Sequence record: AB897757.1
Strand: one strand, 5' to 3'
DNA length: 64,000 nt
DNA from: Klebsiella phage K64-1
The notes under the pieces are model-generated. The model worked only from the letters and a program-made list of their open reading frames with translations, was not told the origin of the DNA and searched no databases. Of this stretch, positions 3,439 through 64,000 are shown one piece after another; position 1 is the first letter of the stretch, and each line of letters begins with the position of its first letter. Position numbers and translations under genes: made by a program.

Positions 3439-3728
3439 GTACGTATGAACGAATAGATAAAACAATACTAAAAACTTTACAAATGATTTATCGATTGACT
3501 AATTCAAGACACAAATACACTGAAATGTTCACTTATACATTTATTGAGTATCTTAATTCCAGATACGAATATTGTACTATAAATGATGATACATTCAGGG
3601 TGGTTGAATTTAAGATTGGGTTATTTGGTATTTTGTGTGTGATTAATTGTGAAAGAACCTGTAGAAATGAATACATTTATACCCATGATTTAGGTGATGT
3701 AGATTTTGTTGTAAAAAAAACATCATAG
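3435..3728 (+). CDS. hypothetical protein, EYLxxKY-family paralog
   Basis: ORF of 97 aa with motif 'FIEYLNSRYEY'. Confidence 0.4.
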   Translation: MSTYERIDKTILKTLQMIYRLTNSRHKYTEMFTYTFIEYLNSRYEYCTINDDTFRVVEFKIGLFGILCVINCERTCRNEYIYTHDLGDVDFVVKKTS

Positions 3729-3738
3729 AGATGATATA

Positions 3739-4056
3739 ATGAAACTATCAGAAGACAAATATTATTGTACTTTAGATTTAATTGCTGAATTATTTCTTGA
3801 TAATAAAATACGAAAAACATATGCTTCTTATACATTGAGTAAATTGCGAGGCATTCATTATGAAGAATATATTCAGTACTTATCTATGAAATACAAAAAT
3901 TCAGTATGTGATGTTTATTCTCATGGAGAAAGTGTCATTCTTGAATTTTCATATGATCAATTTGGTATTTTAATTTATTGTACTAACAATTCATACGGGT
4001 TTTGTACTAGATTGGATTTTGTGGAAATATCTTCTTATGAAAAAACTGAAAAATAG
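3739..4056 (+). CDS. hypothetical protein, EYLxxKY-family paralog
   Basis: ORF of 105 aa with motif 'YIQYLSMKYKNSVC'. Confidence 0.4.
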   Translation: MKLSEDKYYCTLDLIAELFLDNKIRKTYASYTLSKLRGIHYEEYIQYLSMKYKNSVCDVYSHGESVILEFSYDQFGILIYCTNNSYGFCTRLDFVEISSYEKTEK

Positions 4057-4363
4057 TATAGTACACAAAACAATAAAAATGATTAATACTTCTATCATTT
4101 ATACAGATTTTGTATATTGCTCACAAACATATAAAAATTTATTTGATTTACTAATGGAACCGTATATTGAATATTTGAGAGAAAAATATATCAACAAACA
4201 AGGTTCAAGTTCTTACGGTGTTTCTATGAATTATTTTATAAACATAGTTGAAATAAATTCAGATCACGACTGGTTAGTTATTATTAAAGGACAAAATAGC
4301 ACTTTATGTTCTCAAAATTATGTATATTTCTCAATTGATGATTTTATTATAAAAGATGAATAA
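4019..4363 (+). CDS. hypothetical protein, EYLxxKY-family paralog (the true start is probably internal, about 4079)
   Basis: ORF of 114 aa with motif 'IEYLREKYINKQG'. Confidence 0.4.
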   Translation: MWKYLLMKKLKNSIVHKTIKMINTSIIYTDFVYCSQTYKNLFDLLMEPYIEYLREKYINKQGSSSYGVSMNYFINIVEINSDHDWLVIIKGQNSTLCSQNYVYFSIDDFIIKDE

Positions 4364-5346: not shown

Positions 5347-5556
5347 ATGAAATACACCGTTATTGGTATTTTGGGTTCAGATATTTGTAGTACTAACACC
5401 TCGCTGGAAGCAGTACAGGTTGTATTGAAACAGATCCCTTTGAGTGAAAAAAATGCGAAAAAGTTTGAAAATCGATTACAAAATGCAAAAGAAGGCTCCA
5501 CGATTTATATTGAATATGGTGGAGCTTCATGTGCTGTTAAAGTTCACAAGAATTAA
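5347..5556 (+). CDS. hypothetical small protein
   Basis: ORF of 69 aa downstream of the promoter, preceded by a GGGG RBS-like stretch. Confidence 0.4.
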   Translation: MKYTVIGILGSDICSTNTSLEAVQVVLKQIPLSEKNAKKFENRLQNAKEGSTIYIEYGGASCAVKVHKN

Positions 5557-5564
5557 GGGTTACT

Positions 5565-5837
5565 ATGAAATTAATTAAAAATATTTTATTCTTTTTTATT
5601 TTTAGTATATGTATTACAAATAATGTATATGCCATACAAATGAATTGTGTCAATGTACAGGACAATAAATTTTGCACAAGTACAGATGAAAATGGTAATA
5701 CAGTACGTACCAACATTTATCGTTTTGGCAATATAGAAACCATCGAATCATCCGGTACTGATTCCAATGGAAACACTTTTGTTAACAAGTGTACTGTAAT
5801 TAAAATGGATAATTATAGTACTATTAATTGTAATTAA
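5565..5837 (+). CDS. secreted Cys-rich small protein
   Basis: N-terminal signal peptide MKLIKNILFFFIFSICITNNVYA followed by several Cys residues. Confidence 0.45.
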   Translation: MKLIKNILFFFIFSICITNNVYAIQMNCVNVQDNKFCTSTDENGNTVRTNIYRFGNIETIESSGTDSNGNTFVNKCTVIKMDNYSTINCN

Positions 5838-5847
5838 GGTACACTAT

Positions 5848-6243
5848 ATGTCATTTATGAAAGATAAAGAATATGCTGACATAATAATTAAAATTATAAA
5901 ACATTTAAAACAACAAAATTCTGATCTAGGAACTTCAAATTTTAATGAATATGCAAGCTTTGGATATTTGTGTTATAATTATAATGAACCAACATTGACT
6001 TATTTTTATGATAAAAAAGACAAAGATTTCGACAAGTTTTTAACTAAGATGGAAGCACTTTCATTTGATATCAGTACAGAAGAAGGTTATTTCCAGGCGT
6101 CTTTGATGTATCCAGATTCACAAATGCGAGTAATATTTTTATTTTCAGAATTGAAAAAGAATTTTAAAAATGATTCATTTGTTATTCCAATGAAGTTACT
6201 AAATGATAATTTAATATATAAAGGTTATGACTGTTATGTCTGA
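5848..6243 (+). CDS. FQYST-motif family paralog
   Basis: ORF of 131 aa containing 'TEEGYFQASLMYPDSQMRVIFLFSELKKNFK'. Confidence 0.55.
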   Translation: MSFMKDKEYADIIIKIIKHLKQQNSDLGTSNFNEYASFGYLCYNYNEPTLTYFYDKKDKDFDKFLTKMEALSFDISTEEGYFQASLMYPDSQMRVIFLFSELKKNFKNDSFVIPMKLLNDNLIYKGYDCYV

Positions 6244-6625
6244 ATTTGAAAAAATTATTAAACGTTGTGAAATGTATTTTTCTTTTATTACCAAAAATAT
6301 AGAAAAAACAGAAAGAGAATATGTTTTAAAATGCGAATACAAAGATAATGGATTTATCTGTTATACACCAGAAAATGATGAATGTTATTTTTATTTTCCA
6401 GATCCAGAATTTGGTTCTTCTGGTATAAAAACAGAAATACCAAATGATGTTCTAACCGAAGAAGGATATTTTCAGTACTCAACTATTTTTGATAATGAAA
6501 AATTATTCAGTATGGTGTTAATGAAATATTTTAAAGATAATTGTGATTTTAGATTTTCTGTAGAGGCTACTGATTGTCTTTTTGATTTCCTACAAAGAAC
6601 AGTGTACAATGAAAATACTAACTGA
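6227..6625 (+). CDS. FQYST-motif family paralog
   Basis: ORF of 132 aa containing 'TEEGYFQYSTIFDNEKLFSMVLMKYFKDNCD'. Confidence 0.55.
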   Translation: MTVMSEFEKIIKRCEMYFSFITKNIEKTEREYVLKCEYKDNGFICYTPENDECYFYFPDPEFGSSGIKTEIPNDVLTEEGYFQYSTIFDNEKLFSMVLMKYFKDNCDFRFSVEATDCLFDFLQRTVYNENTN

Positions 6626-6803
6626 TAGTGATTGCTACAGAATATGTTCTGAAGTATCTTTAAACTCAATCAATAAAAATAAAGCACAACGTGCAGAACT
6701 AATATTAGTAAGATTTATGGGTACAAACTTTGAAGGAATTGCTTTGTATAATTATATGAATTGTTTAATGGAATATTGTAATGAGTTACATAACAGAAAG
6801 TAG
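6582..6803 (+). CDS. small protein of the GT(N/D)(F/Y)Q family, embedded in the FQYST array
   Basis: ORF of 73 aa with motif 'LVRFMGTNFEGIALYNYMNCLMEY'. Confidence 0.4.
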   Translation: MISYKEQCTMKILTDSDCYRICSEVSLNSINKNKAQRAELILVRFMGTNFEGIALYNYMNCLMEYCNELHNRK

Positions 6804-7203
6804 TTACGAAAGAGATATTTTTATGTGTTCAGAAATAATGAGAATTCATGAACGATTTATTGGTCTTGATTCTTCTGCGTGGAGTTTCAGGGAGGATGCA
6901 TATTTAATTTTCAGCCCAGGAACCAAAAATCAAATACAGTACCATCTTTCATCACAAGAACGAAAAGAGTTATTTTTTAATAATTCTGCTTTTCTGAGTT
7001 CAATTGATTTGGATTATCCACTCAAAGAAGACCTTGATTTGTGTACAGAAGAAGGTTATTTTCAGGGTTCATTAATTCTTGACAAAAAATATTTAACAGT
7101 ATATACTATTTTTCAGTTCCTTGATAAAAATTGTAATTCTGCGTTCTCTATTGATATGGTACCTTTTTTGAAGGGGTTTAGACGAAAATATGAAAATAGT
7201 TGA
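6781..7203 (+). CDS. FQYST-motif family paralog
   Basis: ORF of 140 aa containing 'CTEEGYFQGSLILDKKYLTVYTIFQFLDKNCN'. Confidence 0.55.
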   Translation: MSYITESSYERDIFMCSEIMRIHERFIGLDSSAWSFREDAYLIFSPGTKNQIQYHLSSQERKELFFNNSAFLSSIDLDYPLKEDLDLCTEEGYFQGSLILDKKYLTVYTIFQFLDKNCNSAFSIDMVPFLKGFRRKYENS

Positions 7204-22549: not shown

Positions 22550-23410
22550 ATGAAATTATATTTTTTATTTTCTTTTGCTGAAGATATGTATGGATTTGCA
22601 GAAGATGCAGAAAGTGATGGAATCTCATCACATACCAGGCATCAAAAACACCCACATGAGTTTTATAATAATTTATTCATGTTTATGCAATATAAAATTT
22701 TCTCATCTGAATTTGATAATTTAGATCACCCATGGGAATTACCTTTAATTGATATTCCAGACGAATACGTATTTCAGTTCATGTTAATGGGTCTGGAAGA
22801 CTATGACTTAGTTGTTTATAACTACAGAACTAAACGCATTATGCTTGGAACTCACGATAGTTCCATTGTATATGTTTCAAGTACTAATGATGAGTTAGCG
22901 TCTGATGAAGGTAATTATAGAAAATCTTATGGTTATATAGAAAATGATAATGATTTTATTTTAGATTTTCGTGTATCAGAAGAAGAAAGAAGAAAAAGAG
23001 AAACTTATCAAGTGGAGTTAAAACCAGATAATGGTTATAATGAAATTTTGGAAGTACTTAAACCATACTACCTTGATATTGTTTATAAGAAATATAAACG
23101 CCTGCTAAATCATCTTAGCGAAAAAGAACCAATTGGTTTTGAAACCAATTCATTACGTAATAGCATCATATTTCCACCTAGAGTAATGAAATATGGTGAA
23201 GTTTCTAAACACAAGATGAAACTATATCCAGATGATATTGAAGTTCTATATCATTCGTGGTTGAATAATGATGAACTATATGTAGAAAATAAAAAGTTAA
23301 TGCGTATAAGTAATAATGATGATAGATTGCTACAAGCGTGGTATAATGATTCATATTCTGCATTTACTGACAGTAATTCTGAGTATTGGAAGAATACAGG
23401 ACAAAACTAA
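22550..23410 (+). CDS. hypothetical protein
   Basis: ORF of 286 aa followed by a strong terminator. Confidence 0.5.
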   Translation: MKLYFLFSFAEDMYGFAEDAESDGISSHTRHQKHPHEFYNNLFMFMQYKIFSSEFDNLDHPWELPLIDIPDEYVFQFMLMGLEDYDLVVYNYRTKRIMLGTHDSSIVYVSSTNDELASDEGNYRKSYGYIENDNDFILDFRVSEEERRKRETYQVELKPDNGYNEILEVLKPYYLDIVYKKYKRLLNHLSEKEPIGFETNSLRNSIIFPPRVMKYGEVSKHKMKLYPDDIEVLYHSWLNNDELYVENKKLMRISNNDDRLLQAWYNDSYSAFTDSNSEYWKNTGQN

Positions 23411-23414
23411 ACCA

Positions 23415-23442
23415 AGGACGGCGTAAAAACCGTCCTTTTTTA
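23415..23442 (+). terminator. rho-independent terminator
   Basis: Sequence aaggacgg-cgtaaaaa-ccgtcctttttt. Confidence 0.6.
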
Positions 23443-23445
23443 ATA

Positions 23446-23453
23446 TATAAATA
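23446..23453 (+). promoter_or_regulatory. T4-late-promoter-like TATAAATA box
   Basis: Exact TATAAATA immediately upstream of the ORF-free structured region. Confidence 0.3.
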
Positions 23454-23459
23454 TCTGAA

Positions 23460-24130
23460 CGAAAAATAGATTTAAGATATAATGTATGTAATTACAAGGA
23501 TGTTGGATGCACAGGATGTGCATACACTAAAAACCTGATCCACTCGAAACAAGTAGAGGGCAGATGAGTATACCAACAATACGCCGTGTAGAGGATACCC
23601 GTTTAGGCGAGTCGACACGTTAAAGGGCAAAGGTAGCACGATTGCCCCAATCTCTCAGGAGATTGATAGGACGCGAATCCAGTTAAGTCTGGACATTAAG
23701 TGTAAAAGGGAGATTATTTTCTTTTAGATATTTTGGAAATAATCACAGTATTGAATTGCTTGAATAGTTCGGTACTGAAGTGCAAGTATGTTTAAACTTG
23801 TGACCGTTGCATGTGACTGCGATAAGGGGAAACCGGGCAACCCGCCTCTGCCTAATAAATTAAATTTATTAGAATTCGCAATTCAAGGAATTTCGACAGC
23901 TACGAGCTTCAAGGCTTAGCTTTTTTATTTCTCTTCCCCTCCCTGTGGGGGGATGAAAATATCTCGTGCAAACGCCTTCAAGTATTGAAATTCACGAAGT
24001 GAATTGAAATTACTTGTTCTGTAGTCGAACGACAGTGAGACGTGAGAACAAGTAATTTCTGCATGTATCAACGAAGTGACAACGAGTTGATACATAGCAC
24101 TTTAAAACATTATTAAATTCAATAATTAAT
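23460..24130 (+). ncRNA. candidate large structured non-coding RNA or non-coding relic; ORF-free and higher GC
   Basis: About 700 bp with no ORF of 60 aa or more on either strand, in an otherwise gene-dense genome. Composition shifts locally towards GC. Perfect hairpins include aattacttgttct/agaacaagtaatt (13 bp), gtatcaac/gttgatac, gcaca-gga-tgtgc and cccc-tccctgt-gggg. Confidence 0.3.
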
Positions 24131-24150
24131 ATTATTATGGTTTTAAAGAA

Positions 24151-24762
24151 ATGAATTTAGAAGAACAGAAAAAAATCGCTTCAAGAAAACAAAAGAAAGG
24201 AATTGATATTAAGTACTTGAATAAGGAATTTCAAATAGTTCATAATCCAGATAGCTCTTTTTGTGGTTACAGAATACGAACAGAACAAAATACATTATCT
24301 AATATAAGCGAGTATGAAAATGGTACTGAAATAGGAATTATTCATTTCAGACCAACTCAAACTCCAACAATACTCGGAGCTAGATATAAACAATATTTTG
24401 AAGAGAGATATACCAATGGAAACATTTCTATTCATTATACATTTTATAAAAGTGTATTAATTGGTGAATACAAGAAATATGATTCAGATGGGAATTTAAC
24501 ACTAAGAGAATTCTATGATGGAAATGGTGATTGTACTAAAGAAATAAAAGAATTCATTGGTTTTAATGGAACCGATGAGGAATTTATGCATTACGAATTT
24601 AAAGAAGATGAAGAATTTAATATATTAATGAGATATGGTTCTCACTTCAAATTAATAAAAGAAATAAAGTTTAAAACAGAATATTTTAATTACGTATATG
24701 AAAATTGTCTTAAACGTGGTTATATACGTAACGATTTATTGAATAAGAAACACAAACACTGA
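24151..24762 (+). CDS. hypothetical protein, possibly MORN/YwqK-like repeats
   Basis: ORF of 203 aa with repeated Y-x-N-G/D-G-N segments. Confidence 0.45.
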   Translation: MNLEEQKKIASRKQKKGIDIKYLNKEFQIVHNPDSSFCGYRIRTEQNTLSNISEYENGTEIGIIHFRPTQTPTILGARYKQYFEERYTNGNISIHYTFYKSVLIGEYKKYDSDGNLTLREFYDGNGDCTKEIKEFIGFNGTDEEFMHYEFKEDEEFNILMRYGSHFKLIKEIKFKTEYFNYVYENCLKRGYIRNDLLNKKHKH

Positions 24763-24786
24763 ACTAAAATAAAGGAAAATAACTTC

Positions 24787-25305
24787 ATGGAAAAGAAGAA
24801 AAACAAACACGCGGTACACTTCAGTACAAGAAAAAATGATCTATGGACAACACCAAAACCATTGTTTGATAAACTTAATGCTTTGTGGAATTTTACAGTA
24901 GATGTTGCTTGTACTCATGAAACTGCTTTGTGTCTTAAACATTACACACCAGAAGATGATGGTTTATCACAGGACTGGAGCAATGAAACATTTTGGTTAA
25001 ATCCACCTTATAGTGATTTATCTCCGTGGTTATCAAAAAGTGTTGAAGACTATAACAGAGGTGCTACTGGTTTGATTTTGGTTCCAGCAAGAACTGATAC
25101 CAGAGCTTTTCAGAATTTTGCTTCTCCTTTTTGTGATGCTATGTGTTTTATAAAAGGAAGGCTTAAATTTGGTAATCCATTAAAACCAGATGATAAACTA
25201 TCATCAGCACCATTTCCTTCTTGTATTATAGTACTGGATAAGAATCTAACACAAGCGAAAATAGATTGCCTAAAATCATTAGGAAACACTATGGTTAACA
25301 TATGA
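24787..25305 (+). CDS. dam: phage-type DNA N6-adenine methyltransferase (Dam, PF05869-like)
   Basis: ORF of 172 aa containing 'WTTPKPLFDKLNALWNFTVDVACT...FWLNPPYSDLSPWL...LVPARTDT'. The NPPY catalytic motif and the order of conserved blocks match the small phage Dam family. Confidence 0.65.
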   Translation: MEKKKNKHAVHFSTRKNDLWTTPKPLFDKLNALWNFTVDVACTHETALCLKHYTPEDDGLSQDWSNETFWLNPPYSDLSPWLSKSVEDYNRGATGLILVPARTDTRAFQNFASPFCDAMCFIKGRLKFGNPLKPDDKLSSAPFPSCIIVLDKNLTQAKIDCLKSLGNTMVNI

Positions 25306-25838
25306 ATAAATGTATAATTACTTTTGGTAGAATAAATCCAATTCATTTAGGTCATGGGATTTTATTCAATAAAGTACAAGATATTAGTACTGAATTAAAT
25401 GCAGATTTTCGAATTTATCTCAGTACTACACAAGATCCAAAGAAAAATCCACTTCCACCTAATCTAAAACAATATTACACTTCAAATTTTTATCCAAACA
25501 TTAAAGATGTATTGAGTACTGAAAGTAATGTGATTAATATTATGCAAGATTTGGATTCTCAGTACAGTGATATTATTTTTGTTTGTGGATCAGATCGAAT
25601 AAATTCCTTTAAAAAAGCACTTGACAGTGCCAATGGAAAATTATATAATTTCGATTCAATAGAAGTAATTCAGGCTGGGATTGAAAGAGAATGTAGCAAA
25701 TATAGTAGTACTGTAATGCGTTCGTATGCACTTGATGGTGATTACAACTCATTTAGTACCTTTTTACCTGGAAAAGATGTTTATTTAAAAGAACAGCTAT
25801 TTGAAGATGTTCGACTGTATTTGGGAGTACAAAAATGA
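25302..25838 (+). CDS. HxGH-motif nucleotidyltransferase, NMN/NaMN adenylyltransferase-like (NadM/NadR-like)
   Basis: ORF of 178 aa with 'FGRINPIHLGHGIL' (the (H/T)xGH motif) and a C-terminal 'SSTVMRS' (ISSTxIR-like). The NatV N-terminus at 49259 is homologous to it. Confidence 0.55.
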   Translation: MNKCIITFGRINPIHLGHGILFNKVQDISTELNADFRIYLSTTQDPKKNPLPPNLKQYYTSNFYPNIKDVLSTESNVINIMQDLDSQYSDIIFVCGSDRINSFKKALDSANGKLYNFDSIEVIQAGIERECSKYSSTVMRSYALDGDYNSFSTFLPGKDVYLKEQLFEDVRLYLGVQK

Positions 25839-61971: not shown

Positions 61972-62141
61972 AAAATATTTTTAAAAAAGAATATGATGGT
62001 GAAAGCCTTTGTGATGTTCAACGAGATGTTGTTGAAGCATTCAGTACAGTATTCAATCCAGAAATGATTGATATCCCAGTCGATGAATACGGATTTCAGG
62101 AAGGTACATTTGTTGTAAGTATTAAATGGAAGCCAGAATAA
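61968..62141 (+). CDS. hypothetical small protein (57 aa); not in the track
   Basis: ATGA overlap with the upstream gene. The product begins MKNIFKKEYDGESLCDVQRD.... Confidence 0.3.
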   Translation: MKNIFKKEYDGESLCDVQRDVVEAFSTVFNPEMIDIPVDEYGFQEGTFVVSIKWKPE

Positions 62142-62267
62142 TGCGTGATCTTATTATGTTCTTTTCTGCAATCATAGGATTATGTACTTATTATTTTTCC
62201 AATCATTATATTATAGCTATGGTATTTGCTATTATATATATTGCACTTTACAGTACTGACGACGAAT

Positions 62268-62291
62268 AAAAGCACCCCAGCGGTGCTTTTT
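62268..62291 (+). terminator. rho-independent terminator
   Basis: Sequence aaagcacc-ccagc-ggtgcttttt. Confidence 0.55.
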
Positions 62292-62350
62292 GTATTTGTA
62301 CAAAATATAATCTAAGTGACTTTTTATTGATTTAAATCAAGAATAAAATC

Positions 62351-62368
62351 ACCTTTTAGTGATATAAT
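62351..62368 (+). promoter_or_regulatory. promoter with extended -10 (TAGTGATATAAT) upstream of nrdD
   Basis: TG at 62360-62361 and TATAAT at 62363-62368. Confidence 0.4.
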
Positions 62369-62424
62369 ATGTTACGTAGCATTTAAATAAATCTACCACA
62401 TAATAAAAAAATCAAGGAAGAAAA

Positions 62425-64000
62425 ATGAATTCAAATAAATTATATGAAGATATTGAAAATTTTATTAATAATACAAATAAAGATATTACTACTGAAAATG
62501 CTAATAAAGATGCCAAAGTAGTTAATACACATAGAGATTTATTTGCTGGTATCCTTTCTAAACATTACGCCCAAGATACTATCCCAGAAGAATTTATTAA
62601 ATGGCACAATGATGGTTATGGACACTGCCACGATTTAGATTACTGGATCTCACCACTAACAAATTGCTGCCTTATTAATTATCCAGATATGCTTAGAAAT
62701 GGTTTTAAAATTGGTAGTGCTAACATTGAAGAACCAAAAAGTTTTTCTGTGGCTTGTACGGTACTAACACAGATTGTGCAAGCGGTTGCAAGTTCACAAT
62801 ATGGTGGACAATCATTAGCTCACATTGACAAATATTTAGAACCATATGTTCAAATGTCATGGAATAAACTATTAGAAAAACAAAAGAAATATAATTTAAG
62901 TACCGAATTCATTGAAGACGAATTAAAAAAAGAAGTTTATGATGGGTGTCAAACATTTTTATATCAATTAAACAGTACTGTGTCCGTGTCAGGTCAAACC
63001 CCTTTCATATCTATTAGTTTAGGTTTAAGTACTACTAAATTTGGACGTTTAATTACTGAACAATATTTAAAAGTTCATGAAAAAGGTTTAGGTAAAGATG
63101 GCATTACTCCAGTATTTCCGAAAGTTATTTTCTTTTTAGAAGATGGTATTAATACTAATAGTACTGATCCAAATTATGATTTAAAACAACAAGCATTACA
63201 TTGTAGTTCTAAAAGAATTTATCCTGATTTCGTTAGTGTTACATTGAATAAAGAAACCACAGGTAGTACTTCTGAAGCTGTTACTCCAATGGGTTGTCGT
63301 TCATTCCTTTCCAAATGGATAAATGAAGATGGTGAAGAGCAATATAATGGCCGTTGTAATTTAGGGGTGGCATCAATCAACCTACCGTTAATTGCTCTTG
63401 AAAGTACGTCAGACGCCGTTTTCTTTGACAAGTTACACCATCACATGGACATGGCATACCGCTTCTTATCACTTCGTGTAGAGCGTTTAAAAGACACAAA
63501 AGCCCGACAGAATCCAGTACTGTACATGTACGGAGCCTTAGCTCGTTTAGATCCAGATGAGACTATTGAGCAACTATTTTACAATGGTAGAAGTTCCATT
63601 AGTATTGGGTATGTTGGTTTATCTGAATGTTCTGAAATTCTTAAAGGAAAAATAGACAAAGATTTTGGATTAAAAGTACTAAAATATATGCAAATGAAAT
63701 GCAATCAATATAAAGAAGAAACTAATATCGCATATAGTTTATATGGAACACCAGCCGAGAGTTTGTGTTATAAATTTGCAAAAGCTATAAATGAGAAATA
63801 CCCCTCTGTATTGAATAGAGATTACATTAGTAATTCATTCCATTATCCAGTTCATTATGATATTTCAATTTTTGATAAATTTCAATATGAAAGTTTATTT
63901 GGAAATATCAGTTCAGGTGGTAATATTAGTTATGTTGAAACTCCAAATCTTTCTAATAATTTAAAAGCATTAGAAACAATAGTTGATTATGCTAGTACGA
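62425..64000 (+). CDS. nrdD: anaerobic ribonucleoside-triphosphate reductase (class III, NrdD), N-terminal ~525 codons; continues beyond the window
   Basis: RBS aaggaag. 'NKDITTENANKDAKVVNTHRDLFAGILSKH', 'NCCLINYPDMLRNGFKIGSANIEEPKSF', 'VASSQYGGQS', 'GITPVFPKV', 'DPNYDLKQQALHCSSKRIYPDF' and 'PMGCRSFLS' are colinear with T4 NrdD (NKDLLNENANKDSRVFPTQRDLMAGIVSKH ... NCCLVDLKGMLENGFKLGNAQIETPKSI ... VASHQYGGTT ... GITPIFPKL ... DPNYDIKQLALECASKRMYPDI ... PMGCRSFLS). There is no stop before 64000. Confidence 0.9.
   Translation, partial: MNSNKLYEDIENFINNTNKDITTENANKDAKVVNTHRDLFAGILSKHYAQDTIPEEFIKWHNDGYGHCHDLDYWISPLTNCCLINYPDMLRNGFKIGSANIEEPKSFSVACTVLTQIVQAVASSQYGGQSLAHIDKYLEPYVQMSWNKLLEKQKKYNLSTEFIEDELKKEVYDGCQTFLYQLNSTVSVSGQTPFISISLGLSTTKFGRLITEQYLKVHEKGLGKDGITPVFPKVIFFLEDGINTNSTDPNYDLKQQALHCSSKRIYPDFVSVTLNKETTGSTSEAVTPMGCRSFLSKWINEDGEEQYNGRCNLGVASINLPLIALESTSDAVFFDKLHHHMDMAYRFLSLRVERLKDTKARQNPVLYMYGALARLDPDETIEQLFYNGRSSISIGYVGLSECSEILKGKIDKDFGLKVLKYMQMKCNQYKEETNIAYSLYGTPAESLCYKFAKAINEKYPSVLNRDYISNSFHYPVHYDISIFDKFQYESLFGNISSGGNISYVETPNLSNNLKALETIVDYAST

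Follow-up and report, generated by a model that had tools for sequence, protein, structure and literature searches.

The window analysed here is a stretch of 64,000 nucleotides from Klebsiella phage K64-1 (sequence record AB897757.1), and the element in question is a gap of 740 bp within it, at 23411–24150, between the gene at 22550–23410 and the gene that begins at 24151. The gap holds no open reading frame (ORF) of at least 60 aa on either strand, it is the sole long ORF-free gap of the window (the next largest measures at most 290 bp), and its guanine-cytosine (GC) content is 0.39–0.41 against 0.24–0.30 on both flanks. These points agree with an earlier description made by a model from the letters alone (the sequence-only reading), which had also noted a terminator behind the upstream gene and a series of stem-loops. 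The terminator scan found the former on the + strand at 23414–23443, with a hairpin at 23414–23437 (8-bp stem, 5 GC pairs) followed by TTTTTAATATA, and all the listed stem-loops were located in the gap sequence: aattacttgttct/agaacaagtaatt at 24008–24020/24045–24057, gtatcaac/gttgatac at 24065–24072/24086–24093, gcac-aggat-gtgc at 23509–23521, and the C-rich/G6 hairpin at 23938–23952. The upstream terminator is outside the RNA described below and insulates its gene from upstream transcription. The window is 98–99% identical to the Klebsiella jumbo phages RaK2 and Muenster (genus Alcyoneusvirus). We consider the + strand from ~23490 to ~23985–24098 to be an independent gene for a large folded non-coding RNA, with its own promoter and belonging as one member to an RNA family, and we give this explanation a probability of roughly 80%. 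The family apparently has not been described so far; the predicted core is about 0.5 kb long, or about 0.6 kb with its hairpin tail.

BLASTN detected the region in 56–69 phage records, all of them jumbo phages (310–386 kb) or partial contigs of one, and the homologues lie in gene-free gaps of 700–900 bp. Their hosts are the phages of the RaK2, 121Q/PBECO4, Munch/7t3, GAP32/CBB and BF/Yen9-04/SNUABM groups together with XbC2, XaC1 and Kaldavass. Twenty-six unique copies were aligned (alignment A3) over the stretch that begins at the shared −10 box and ends shortly after the final conserved block, and RNAalifold analysis of this alignment gave 77 consensus pairs, of which 46 have compensatory changes on both sides; compensatory pairs occur in 11 of the 17 helices. 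Standard pairs fill 96.4% of 1,961 cells, compared with 37–44% when the 3' partners are slid by 1–3 columns, a control that preserves the relatedness of the copies. The covariation score was 0.465 compared with 0.05–0.08 after sliding, and none of 500 shuffles reached any of the observed measures. About 100 columns of A3 are invariant, and these lie mostly in junctions. A mutual-information scan also revealed a pseudoknot, in which 130 of 130 cells are paired and all five pairs show double changes (slid controls, 20–51% paired; score reached by 0 of 500 shuffles), and its two strands switch jointly in other members, as UUGUA/UACAA and UCGAA/UUCGA. We make no claim for the other long-range covarying column pairs in the scan, which resemble two-state effects of clade.

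The strand on which selection acts was evident from the mismatches that the helices tolerate. In a set of 30 sequences with less than 95% identity, G-U pairs outnumber A-C mismatches by 299 to 66, and selection has therefore acted on a + strand transcript, not on duplex DNA or the other strand. A covariance model of the 3' domain (R1) was built on 28 copies from outside the RaK2 group, and it matched the + strand of the window at 23747–23981 with 151.6 bits and E = 9.3e-44 over model positions 1–255 of 255; this is the single R1 match in the 64 kb. The family blocks AUGAG / GA.ACCCG / AAGGGAG / GACCGUU.C / GAUA..GAAAC.G.G.AACCCGC / AAUUC /.C.UCA / G5-6AU / CAAA....UCA all occur in the window copy, in this order. 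That copy can also form the consensus helices and the pseudoknot, with the exception of the middle domain (23620–23704) and of helix H5, which is reduced. The fold energy of 23490–24100 is −191.3 kcal/mol, whereas dinucleotide shuffles gave −149.2 ± 5.5 kcal/mol (z = −7.7), and none of 20 shuffles folded as well. The leading idea of the sequence-only reading, a large structured phage non-coding RNA, is strongly supported by the covariation across homologous regions. The opposite case that it had named, a decayed pseudogene region, is excluded, because covariation excludes neutral decay. The ~15 covarying helices, the pseudoknot and the ~100 invariant, mostly unpaired nucleotides together describe a compact tertiary fold of the type found in ribozymes, in the RNAs of ribonucleoproteins (RNPs) and in self-assembling ornate RNAs.

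The conserved promoter occupies 23455–23483 on the + strand, with a −35-like CTGAACG at 23455–23461, a spacer of ~16–17 nt and the −10 sequence TATAAT at 23478–23483. TATAAT was aligned in 13 of 14 unanchored gap alignments and is found in every full-length copy, 264–390 nt upstream of the GACCGUU block (324 nt in the window). The extended form TGnTATAAT occurs in 35 of 42 unique copies, most of which have a G(G/A)(G/A)AC(A/G) element 16 nt upstream; the TATAAT of the window copy is without the TG of the extended −10. A promoter class of CBB/GAP32 consists of a −35 TGAAACG and a classic −10 and is concentrated before DNA-synthesis genes (PMC5259590), and the promoter of the RNA family resembles it. 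The sequence-only reading had pointed instead to an exact TATAAATA at 23446–23453 (+ strand), the T4 late promoter consensus, just upstream. The sequence does sit there, inside an A/T-rich, UP-element-like stretch, but it is probably not a functional promoter, and this role was rejected because TATAAATA is at chance level and not conserved. It occurs five times on both strands of the window against 20.4 ± 4.9 expected, which makes it under-represented, and it was not found at the equivalent position in any homologue outside the RaK2 group. The + strand, which is that of the genes examined around the RNA locus, carries just one TATAAATA; if the phage uses a T4-like late promoter, the window hardly contains any. 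The RNA is driven, as far as conservation among the copies can tell, by the RpoD-type promoter (extended −10 in the family) located 25 nt downstream of TATAAATA and not by TATAAATA itself, and transcription probably starts near 23490.

All elements of the RNA named in the following lie on the + strand of the window. The 5' end carries a hairpin in the centroid fold, AUGCAC-AGGAU-GUGCAU at 23507–23523, which is the gcaca-gga-tgtgc of the sequence-only reading, and a stable hairpin of varying sequence stands in the same place in nearly all copies. Three GGA motifs were noted at 23494–23521, one of them in the loop of the GCAC-AGGAU-GUGC hairpin; two are kept in the second copy of RaK2 (copy 2) and none in other genera. 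ACAAGGAUGU, also at this end, matches what we take to be the consensus for CsrA from systematic evolution of ligands by exponential enrichment (SELEX), and the GGA motifs may be a CsrA-binding feature of this lineage, or they may have arisen by chance. Helix H1 follows at 23535–23563, formed by CUGAUCCACUC ... GAGGGCAG (8 pairs) around a conserved GAAA-rich loop, with compensatory double changes in 7 of its 8 pairs and 94% of cells paired. The segment 23564–23619 comprises the AUGAG junction, hairpin H3 (23568–23582), the invariant GA.ACCCG and helix H4 (23585–23589 with 23615–23619); double changes are seen in three of the four pairs of H3 and four of the five of H4, and H4 is 100% paired. 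The middle domain (23620–23704), for which the centroid fold gives hairpins at 23625–23646, 23647–23664 and 23671–23702, is replaced in the RaK2 group, that is, in the window and RaK2 copy 2, relative to all other genera. Its counterpart in the other members is H6, which covaries in 5 of 5 pairs.

The segment 23705–23809 holds the invariant AAGGGAG block; its predicted partner is CCGUUG in the GACCGUUGC block, and the resulting helix, H8, would enclose three helices. These are H9 (23712–23715 with 23741–23744; longer in the window, double changes in 4 of 4 pairs), H10 (23750–23758 with 23765–23773; 8 of 9 pairs with double changes) and H11 (23781–23783 with 23800–23802). The pseudoknot joins UUGAA in the H10 loop (23759–23763) to UUCAA at 23883–23887. 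Between these strands lies the most conserved core, GACCGUUGCA..GACUGCGAUA..GAAAC.G.GCAACCCGC at 23802–23880, which holds H12 (23818–23822 with 23876–23880), H13 (23825–23829 with 23845–23849) and H14 (23852–23855 with 23869–23872). All three covary and are 98–100% paired, and G-U is used by H13 in 22 of 26 copies.

The 3' part contains a terminator-like hairpin at 23898–23921, which has a 2-nt bulge and is followed by a U-run (23898–23929); its form in the window was read by eye, and the terminator scan of the window did not flag it. The corresponding family helix, H16, covaries in 4 of 4 pairs, and most copies carry the hairpin with a U-run. The hairpin is missing from three paralogues (121Q_c, U2029_b and U12988_c) and is therefore an optional element. 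Strong conservation extends past H16 into the G6 hairpin and the CAAACGCCUUCAAG block: the segment 23938–23985 consists of the C-rich/G6 hairpin (23938–23952), the invariant GGGGGAU and the 3' block CAAACGCCUUCAAG at 23969–23982, with H17 100% paired. A long-range pairing, H2, is predicted between UGA at 23565–23567 and UCA at 23978–23980.

The 3' tail (23989–24098) contains hairpins at 23989–24005 (C-GAA-G triloop), 24008–24057 (13-bp stem) and 24061–24098, and most copies have a comparable tail of two or three hairpins after the last block. The long perfect hairpins to which the sequence-only reading had drawn attention are present, but they form merely this tail (24008–24093), and the conserved covarying core is 23535–23985. 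In the second tail hairpin, compared by eye, CAUUC/GAAUG changes to CAAUC/GAUUG and to CUAC/GUAG between members with the pairing kept. The tail loops of the window and other copies carry ACGAAGUGA/ACGACAGUGA-like motifs, and ACGA[AC] occurs 42 times in 30 tails, compared with 7.7 expected; the repeated loop motif may be a protein-binding site. Several tail hairpins have a GAA or GGA triloop closed by C-G. A + strand terminator is annotated in the UE-S1 record ~150 nt past the last block. The RNA may thus have a short form of ~0.44 kb, with its 3' end near 23929, and a long form of ~0.6–0.7 kb.

The copies occupy two places per genome in the RaK2 group and four or five elsewhere; a strict pattern of the best-conserved block gave 2–4 loci per genome in IMG/VR, and a core pattern matched 25 loci in viral, 33 in metagenome and 3 in genome sequences. 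Between the window copy and RaK2 copy 2 the identity is 80%, and with the remaining copies it is only 56–62%; the paralogues within a genome are old and not recently transposed, and their individual positions are syntenic across genera. At position A, occupied in Asterius-, Mimas- and Eneladusvirus and in Munch, the RNA lies between the endonuclease VII and baseplate-hub genes; the next gene is on the opposite strand and convergent, and the RNA is antisense to the baseplate-hub genes. Position B is near 260 kb, before an ADP-ribosylglycohydrolase gene or other genes. The counterpart of the window copy in RaK2 lies at ~280 kb, ahead of the Dam methylase cluster, and copy 2 (NC_019526, ~191.3–191.9 kb) is immediately downstream of ORF244, a gene for an RpoD-like sigma factor. 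A module of sigma factor and RNA was considered and rejected, since the upstream proteins of the window, E. coli island, Munch and XaC1 copies are unrelated to the RaK2 sigma factor, and no conserved neighbouring protein was found among the loci compared. RaK2 copy 2 also lies ~3 kb upstream of two pseudo-tRNAs (tRNA, transfer RNA). In phage A4 the locus tags restart at the gap (A4_591, endonuclease VII; the RNA; A4_1). A link to the genome terminus was rejected because the "repeat_region" of UE-S1 is a 158-bp local feature and the same locus lies outside the terminal repeat.

Hidden small proteins in the RNA were likewise rejected, as their frames are not conserved among homologues. The 43-aa ORF at 23788–23919 (CPT_Muenster_135) has no counterpart elsewhere, and the aligned ATG of 121Q runs to a stop after 9 codons. 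For the AUG that follows the G6 hairpin, a 1-nt indel shifts the frame between A4 and 121Q while the nucleotides are conserved. Other coding sequences called inside the RNA are the 23-aa g347 and g348 of Yen9-04 and the 68-aa ORF245 in RaK2 copy 2. The frames of CPT_Muenster_135, g347 and g348 are unconserved and look like annotation artefacts, and the ORF245 call is probably spurious.

On the 3' side of the gap, 24151–25838 encodes a 203-aa protein (no Pfam match), a DNA adenine methyltransferase (24787–25305) and a nucleotidyl/cytidylyltransferase (25302–25838), with names taken from the Muenster and RaK2 annotations; Muenster has an additional DNA-binding protein gene inserted in the region that matches this stretch. 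Near the other end of the window, 61972–63218 contains short ORFs of 57 and 42 aa and, at 62272–62293, a hairpin resembling a terminator, followed by a long + strand ORF that starts at 62426, runs past the window end and resembles, by eye only, an anaerobic ribonucleotide reductase.

Copies of the RNA were also found in bacterial chromosomes. Intact copies are present in 2 of 5,426 complete E. coli genomes, and these island copies show ~71% identity to the copy in 121Q and 80.6% to the position-A paralogue in Serratia phage BF. The copy of E. coli LR-29-1 (NZ_AP027515.1, ~3478.8–3479.6 kb) lies in a 1.4-kb unannotated gap and has the TGTGATATAAT promoter and all conserved blocks; the second is at 245243–245781 of NZ_CM130020.1. 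The LR-29-1 island is a low-GC segment of ~10 kb between ffs and ybaA, with a tyrosine integrase gene disrupted by IS3, a serine recombinase gene and PADLOC matches to the candidate defence systems PDC-M45A and PDC-M45C (E = 1e-58 and 1e-69) and PDC-S16 (E = 4e-38), as well as a weak PDC-M01B-like C-terminus. The island proteins are unrelated to the neighbour of the window RNA.

A scan of species-representative genomes yielded three further intact copies, which match R1 at E = 1e-44 to 1e-48: in a Serratia sp. (5400–5950 of the stretch examined), in Silvania hatchlandensis (3540–4060, − strand) and in a metagenome-assembled genome (MAG) of Enterobacteriaceae (6430–7030). GC steps from 0.55–0.60 down to 0.33 at the edges of the three islands led us to reject phage contamination as the source of these matches, and the copies therefore lie in chromosomal islands. 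In Serratia and Silvania, the RNA is directly downstream of a large serine recombinase gene at the island edge, and in Silvania and the MAG it converges on a CI-like repressor gene (S24/helix-turn-helix). This arrangement would be the integrase-repressor corner of a temperate element; the islands may be satellites, prophage remnants or defence islands. A plasmid search did not find the RNA on any plasmid. Because both jumbo phages and islands carry it, the RNA gene has passed between the jumbo phages and bacterial elements of a temperate or defence type. The distribution suggests that the RaK2-, 121Q-, GAP32/CBB- and BF/Yen9-04-type jumbo phages keep two to five old, diverged copies and that Enterobacterales islands captured the RNA.

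Several other explanations of the locus were considered. The one that survives best, which we nevertheless regard as unlikely, is that the RNA primes replication, with each copy at one of the several origins that the 350-kb genome would have. Near the 3' part (U-run, G6 run and AT-rich tail), the transcript would form a persistent RNA-DNA hybrid and prime leading-strand synthesis, and the island copies would let an island replicate with the phage replisome or compete for it. The presence of several copies per genome, each with its own promoter, would suit this explanation, and a cis-acting element is a plausible thing for a parasitic island to copy. ColE1 RNA II, a primer transcript, is also ~0.5 kb long, and it, the T4 oriE, oriF and oriG transcripts and the jumbo-phage RNA can all be described as structured transcripts of ~0.5 kb that are driven by a promoter and lie in a gene-free gap. 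The T4 origins further resemble the RNA in having several loci per genome, one of them (oriE, reportedly treated by Vaiskunaite et al. in 1999) antisense to baseplate genes, and position A, beside recombination genes and antisense to the baseplate-hub genes, recalls oriE. The similarity to the CBB promoter class found mainly upstream of DNA-synthesis genes (PMC5259590) points the same way. However, the invariant nucleotides, covarying helices and pseudoknot across 0.5 kb far exceed what known primers need, and the jumbo-phage RNA is far more conserved in sequence and structure than the ColE1 and T4 primers; the likeness is one of description, and no homology is claimed. GC skew shows no inflection at the locus, the RNA has no linked gene for a replication initiator, and the islands are without a recognisable replicase. 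The sequence-only reading had listed a packaging or replication cis element among its candidates; replication is retained only as this minority rival, and packaging at the DNA level is contradicted by the data.

A cis-regulatory leader, such as a riboswitch-like 5' untranslated region for the genes from 24151 (the 203-aa protein, Dam methylase and nucleotidyltransferase), is very improbable. The window copy shares its strand with the genes that follow it, and no strong terminator lies at 24098–24151, which is what a leader would predict. Against this, no fewer than four unrelated contexts are represented among the copies, and the genes that follow the RNA are wholly different from copy to copy and from genus to genus. 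The convergent gene at position A means that the RNA cannot be its leader, and the unrelated neighbours together with this opposite-strand gene show that the RNA is not the leader of any particular gene. Most copies also contain an internal hairpin with a U-run, and no riboswitch family was matched.

The size of the RNA, its pseudoknot, its many invariant junction nucleotides and its several copies at different sites would also suit an RNA of a known catalytic or mobile class that persists as a relic or without an ORF, for instance a group I or group II intron or a molecule like ribonuclease P (RNase P) or transfer-messenger RNA (tmRNA). T4-like phages carry several group I introns. We hold this to be just as improbable as a leader. 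Searched with Rfam 15 at the gathering score, the entire window gave no match; for 23300–24250, a limit of E up to 10 yielded nothing but scattered noise, and at E up to 5 no family recurred among 12 diverse homologous loci. ARAGORN found no tRNA or tmRNA gene in the 64 kb. The scans proposed in the sequence-only reading for GOLLD, ROOL, introns, tmRNA and tRNA were thus run with nothing found, and neither its GOLLD/ROOL-like candidate nor its intron or ribozyme relic was borne out. ROOL, GOLLD, OLE, HEARO and raiA are rejected for want of a covariance-model match in the window, the region or the 12 loci, and RNase P, 6S, signal recognition particle RNA, tRNA and tmRNA for want of an Rfam or ARAGORN match. 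Group I and group II introns are rejected on the Rfam result and because a stop codon and a terminator close the upstream gene; with its own promoter and its position after a terminated gene, the RNA interrupts no gene, and its paralogues are old and syntenic, not recently transposed. Mimicry of a host RNA was rejected, as there is no similarity to E. coli RNA genes and the only matches in E. coli genomes are the two island copies. The hammerhead-like CAGAUGAG and the cobalamin- or RNase-P-like strings, all picked out by eye, do not fit the respective cores and have no model support.

Least likely is that the gap acts as DNA, as a packaging site or through cruciforms or hairpins that bind protein, or that it is what remains of a decayed pseudogene. 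The long perfect inverted repeats of the tail and the ORF-free DNA would point that way, but the G-U excess in the helices indicates selection on one strand as RNA, the promoter and terminator-like signals are consistently oriented, covariation excludes neutral decay, and the locus lies outside the terminal repeat.

Among known RNAs, the jumbo-phage RNA is closest in kind to ROOL and GOLLD, large ornate phage-borne RNAs without a linked protein, which cryogenic electron microscopy shows to form RNA-only homo-oligomeric cages (PMC12286853). It shares with them a length of 0.5–0.8 kb, many covarying helices with pseudoknots, and stand-alone genes in phages, prophages or islands. It differs in its hosts, which are Enterobacterales jumbo phages and not Lactobacillales or rumen bacteria, and in having 2–5 diverged paralogues per genome. 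ROOL and GOLLD often adjoin tRNA genes, whereas the window has none, RaK2 copy 2 is near pseudo-tRNAs and the other contexts have none. OLE RNA is similar in size (~600 nt) and in the mixture of invariant junction nucleotides with covarying stems, but it forms an RNP with OapA/B/C at a housekeeping locus of extremophilic Firmicutes, whereas the jumbo-phage RNA is viral or island-borne and has no conserved adjacent protein genes. Large ORF-less transcripts have been reported from other large lytic phages: an RNA of ~800 nt in ICP1 (PMC7567579) and the abundant ncRNA001–004 of PA5oct, of which ncRNA1 and ncRNA2 have no similarity to other sequences save the near-identical isolate MIJ3 (PMC7318152). 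They are likewise non-coding and located in gene-free gaps, and PA5oct is a relative of the RaK2/121Q clade; these RNAs were defined by RNA sequencing (RNA-seq) without a structure or family, whereas the jumbo-phage RNA is defined by structure and family, and no homology is claimed. The RNA is not described in the literature searched, including the RaK2, CBB, PA5oct and UE-S1 genome papers. The accessible part of a 2023 survey, which covers more than 10,000 candidate structured RNAs of viruses, lists motifs of 29–151 nt only, among which short fragments of the RNA could be included.

For the non-coding RNA gene that we favour, the following mechanism is proposed. Transcription would start from its own RpoD-type promoter (23455–23483), shielded by the terminator of the upstream gene, and the RNA would work in trans as a folded particle rather than as the leader of a gene beside it. 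The particle might be catalytic, might consist of RNA only, or might bind proteins as a scaffold or RNP, and the island copies may exploit or antagonise its role, for example as a decoy or competitor. We hold a trans-acting folded RNA of some kind to be probable, and a minor share of this expectation falls to a role in defence or counter-defence. Readings other than a trans-acting RNA or an origin primer are collectively improbable, although a shade less so than the primer alone.

Several points weigh against the favoured explanation. No transcript was observed, and no RNA-seq was found for any family member, so the start, the 3' end (~23929, or 24098 or beyond) and the abundance are all inferred. 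No protein partner could be identified for the RNA. The pairings of H8 (AAGG/CCGUU) and of the long-range H2 (UGA/UCA) never vary and are therefore predictions outside the covariation support. Nothing terminator-like lies between the tail and the gene at 24151 in the window, and read-through into the genes downstream of the window copy is possible. Many copies come from related phages, and the cell counts therefore overstate the number of independent events.

In summary, the analysis adds to jumbo-phage biology a conserved, multi-copy non-coding component that is unmentioned in the genome papers searched for this clade. RNAs above 400 nt that have conserved, complex folds are uncommon, and the known classes are nearly all catalytic, RNP cores or, like ROOL and GOLLD, unexpected RNA-only assemblies; this one is present in cultured phages of E. 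coli, Klebsiella, Salmonella and Serratia, with a clear promoter and dozens of diverged copies, from which ~15 helices and a pseudoknot are defined. It also calls for a correction of annotation, as several deposited genomes call small hypothetical proteins inside the RNA. The bacterial copies beside candidate defence genes raise the question of whether the island RNA is protective against these phages. A more ambitious possibility, which we consider doubtful, is that the RNA represents a new functional class (a ribozyme, an RNP core or a self-assembling particle) that is important to jumbo phages and was captured into integrase-borne defence islands as a decoy or dominant-negative competitor. 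If this is true, its importance to the phage would explain why several old paralogues are retained, and a structured non-coding RNA would itself be a contested molecule in the arms race between phage and host.

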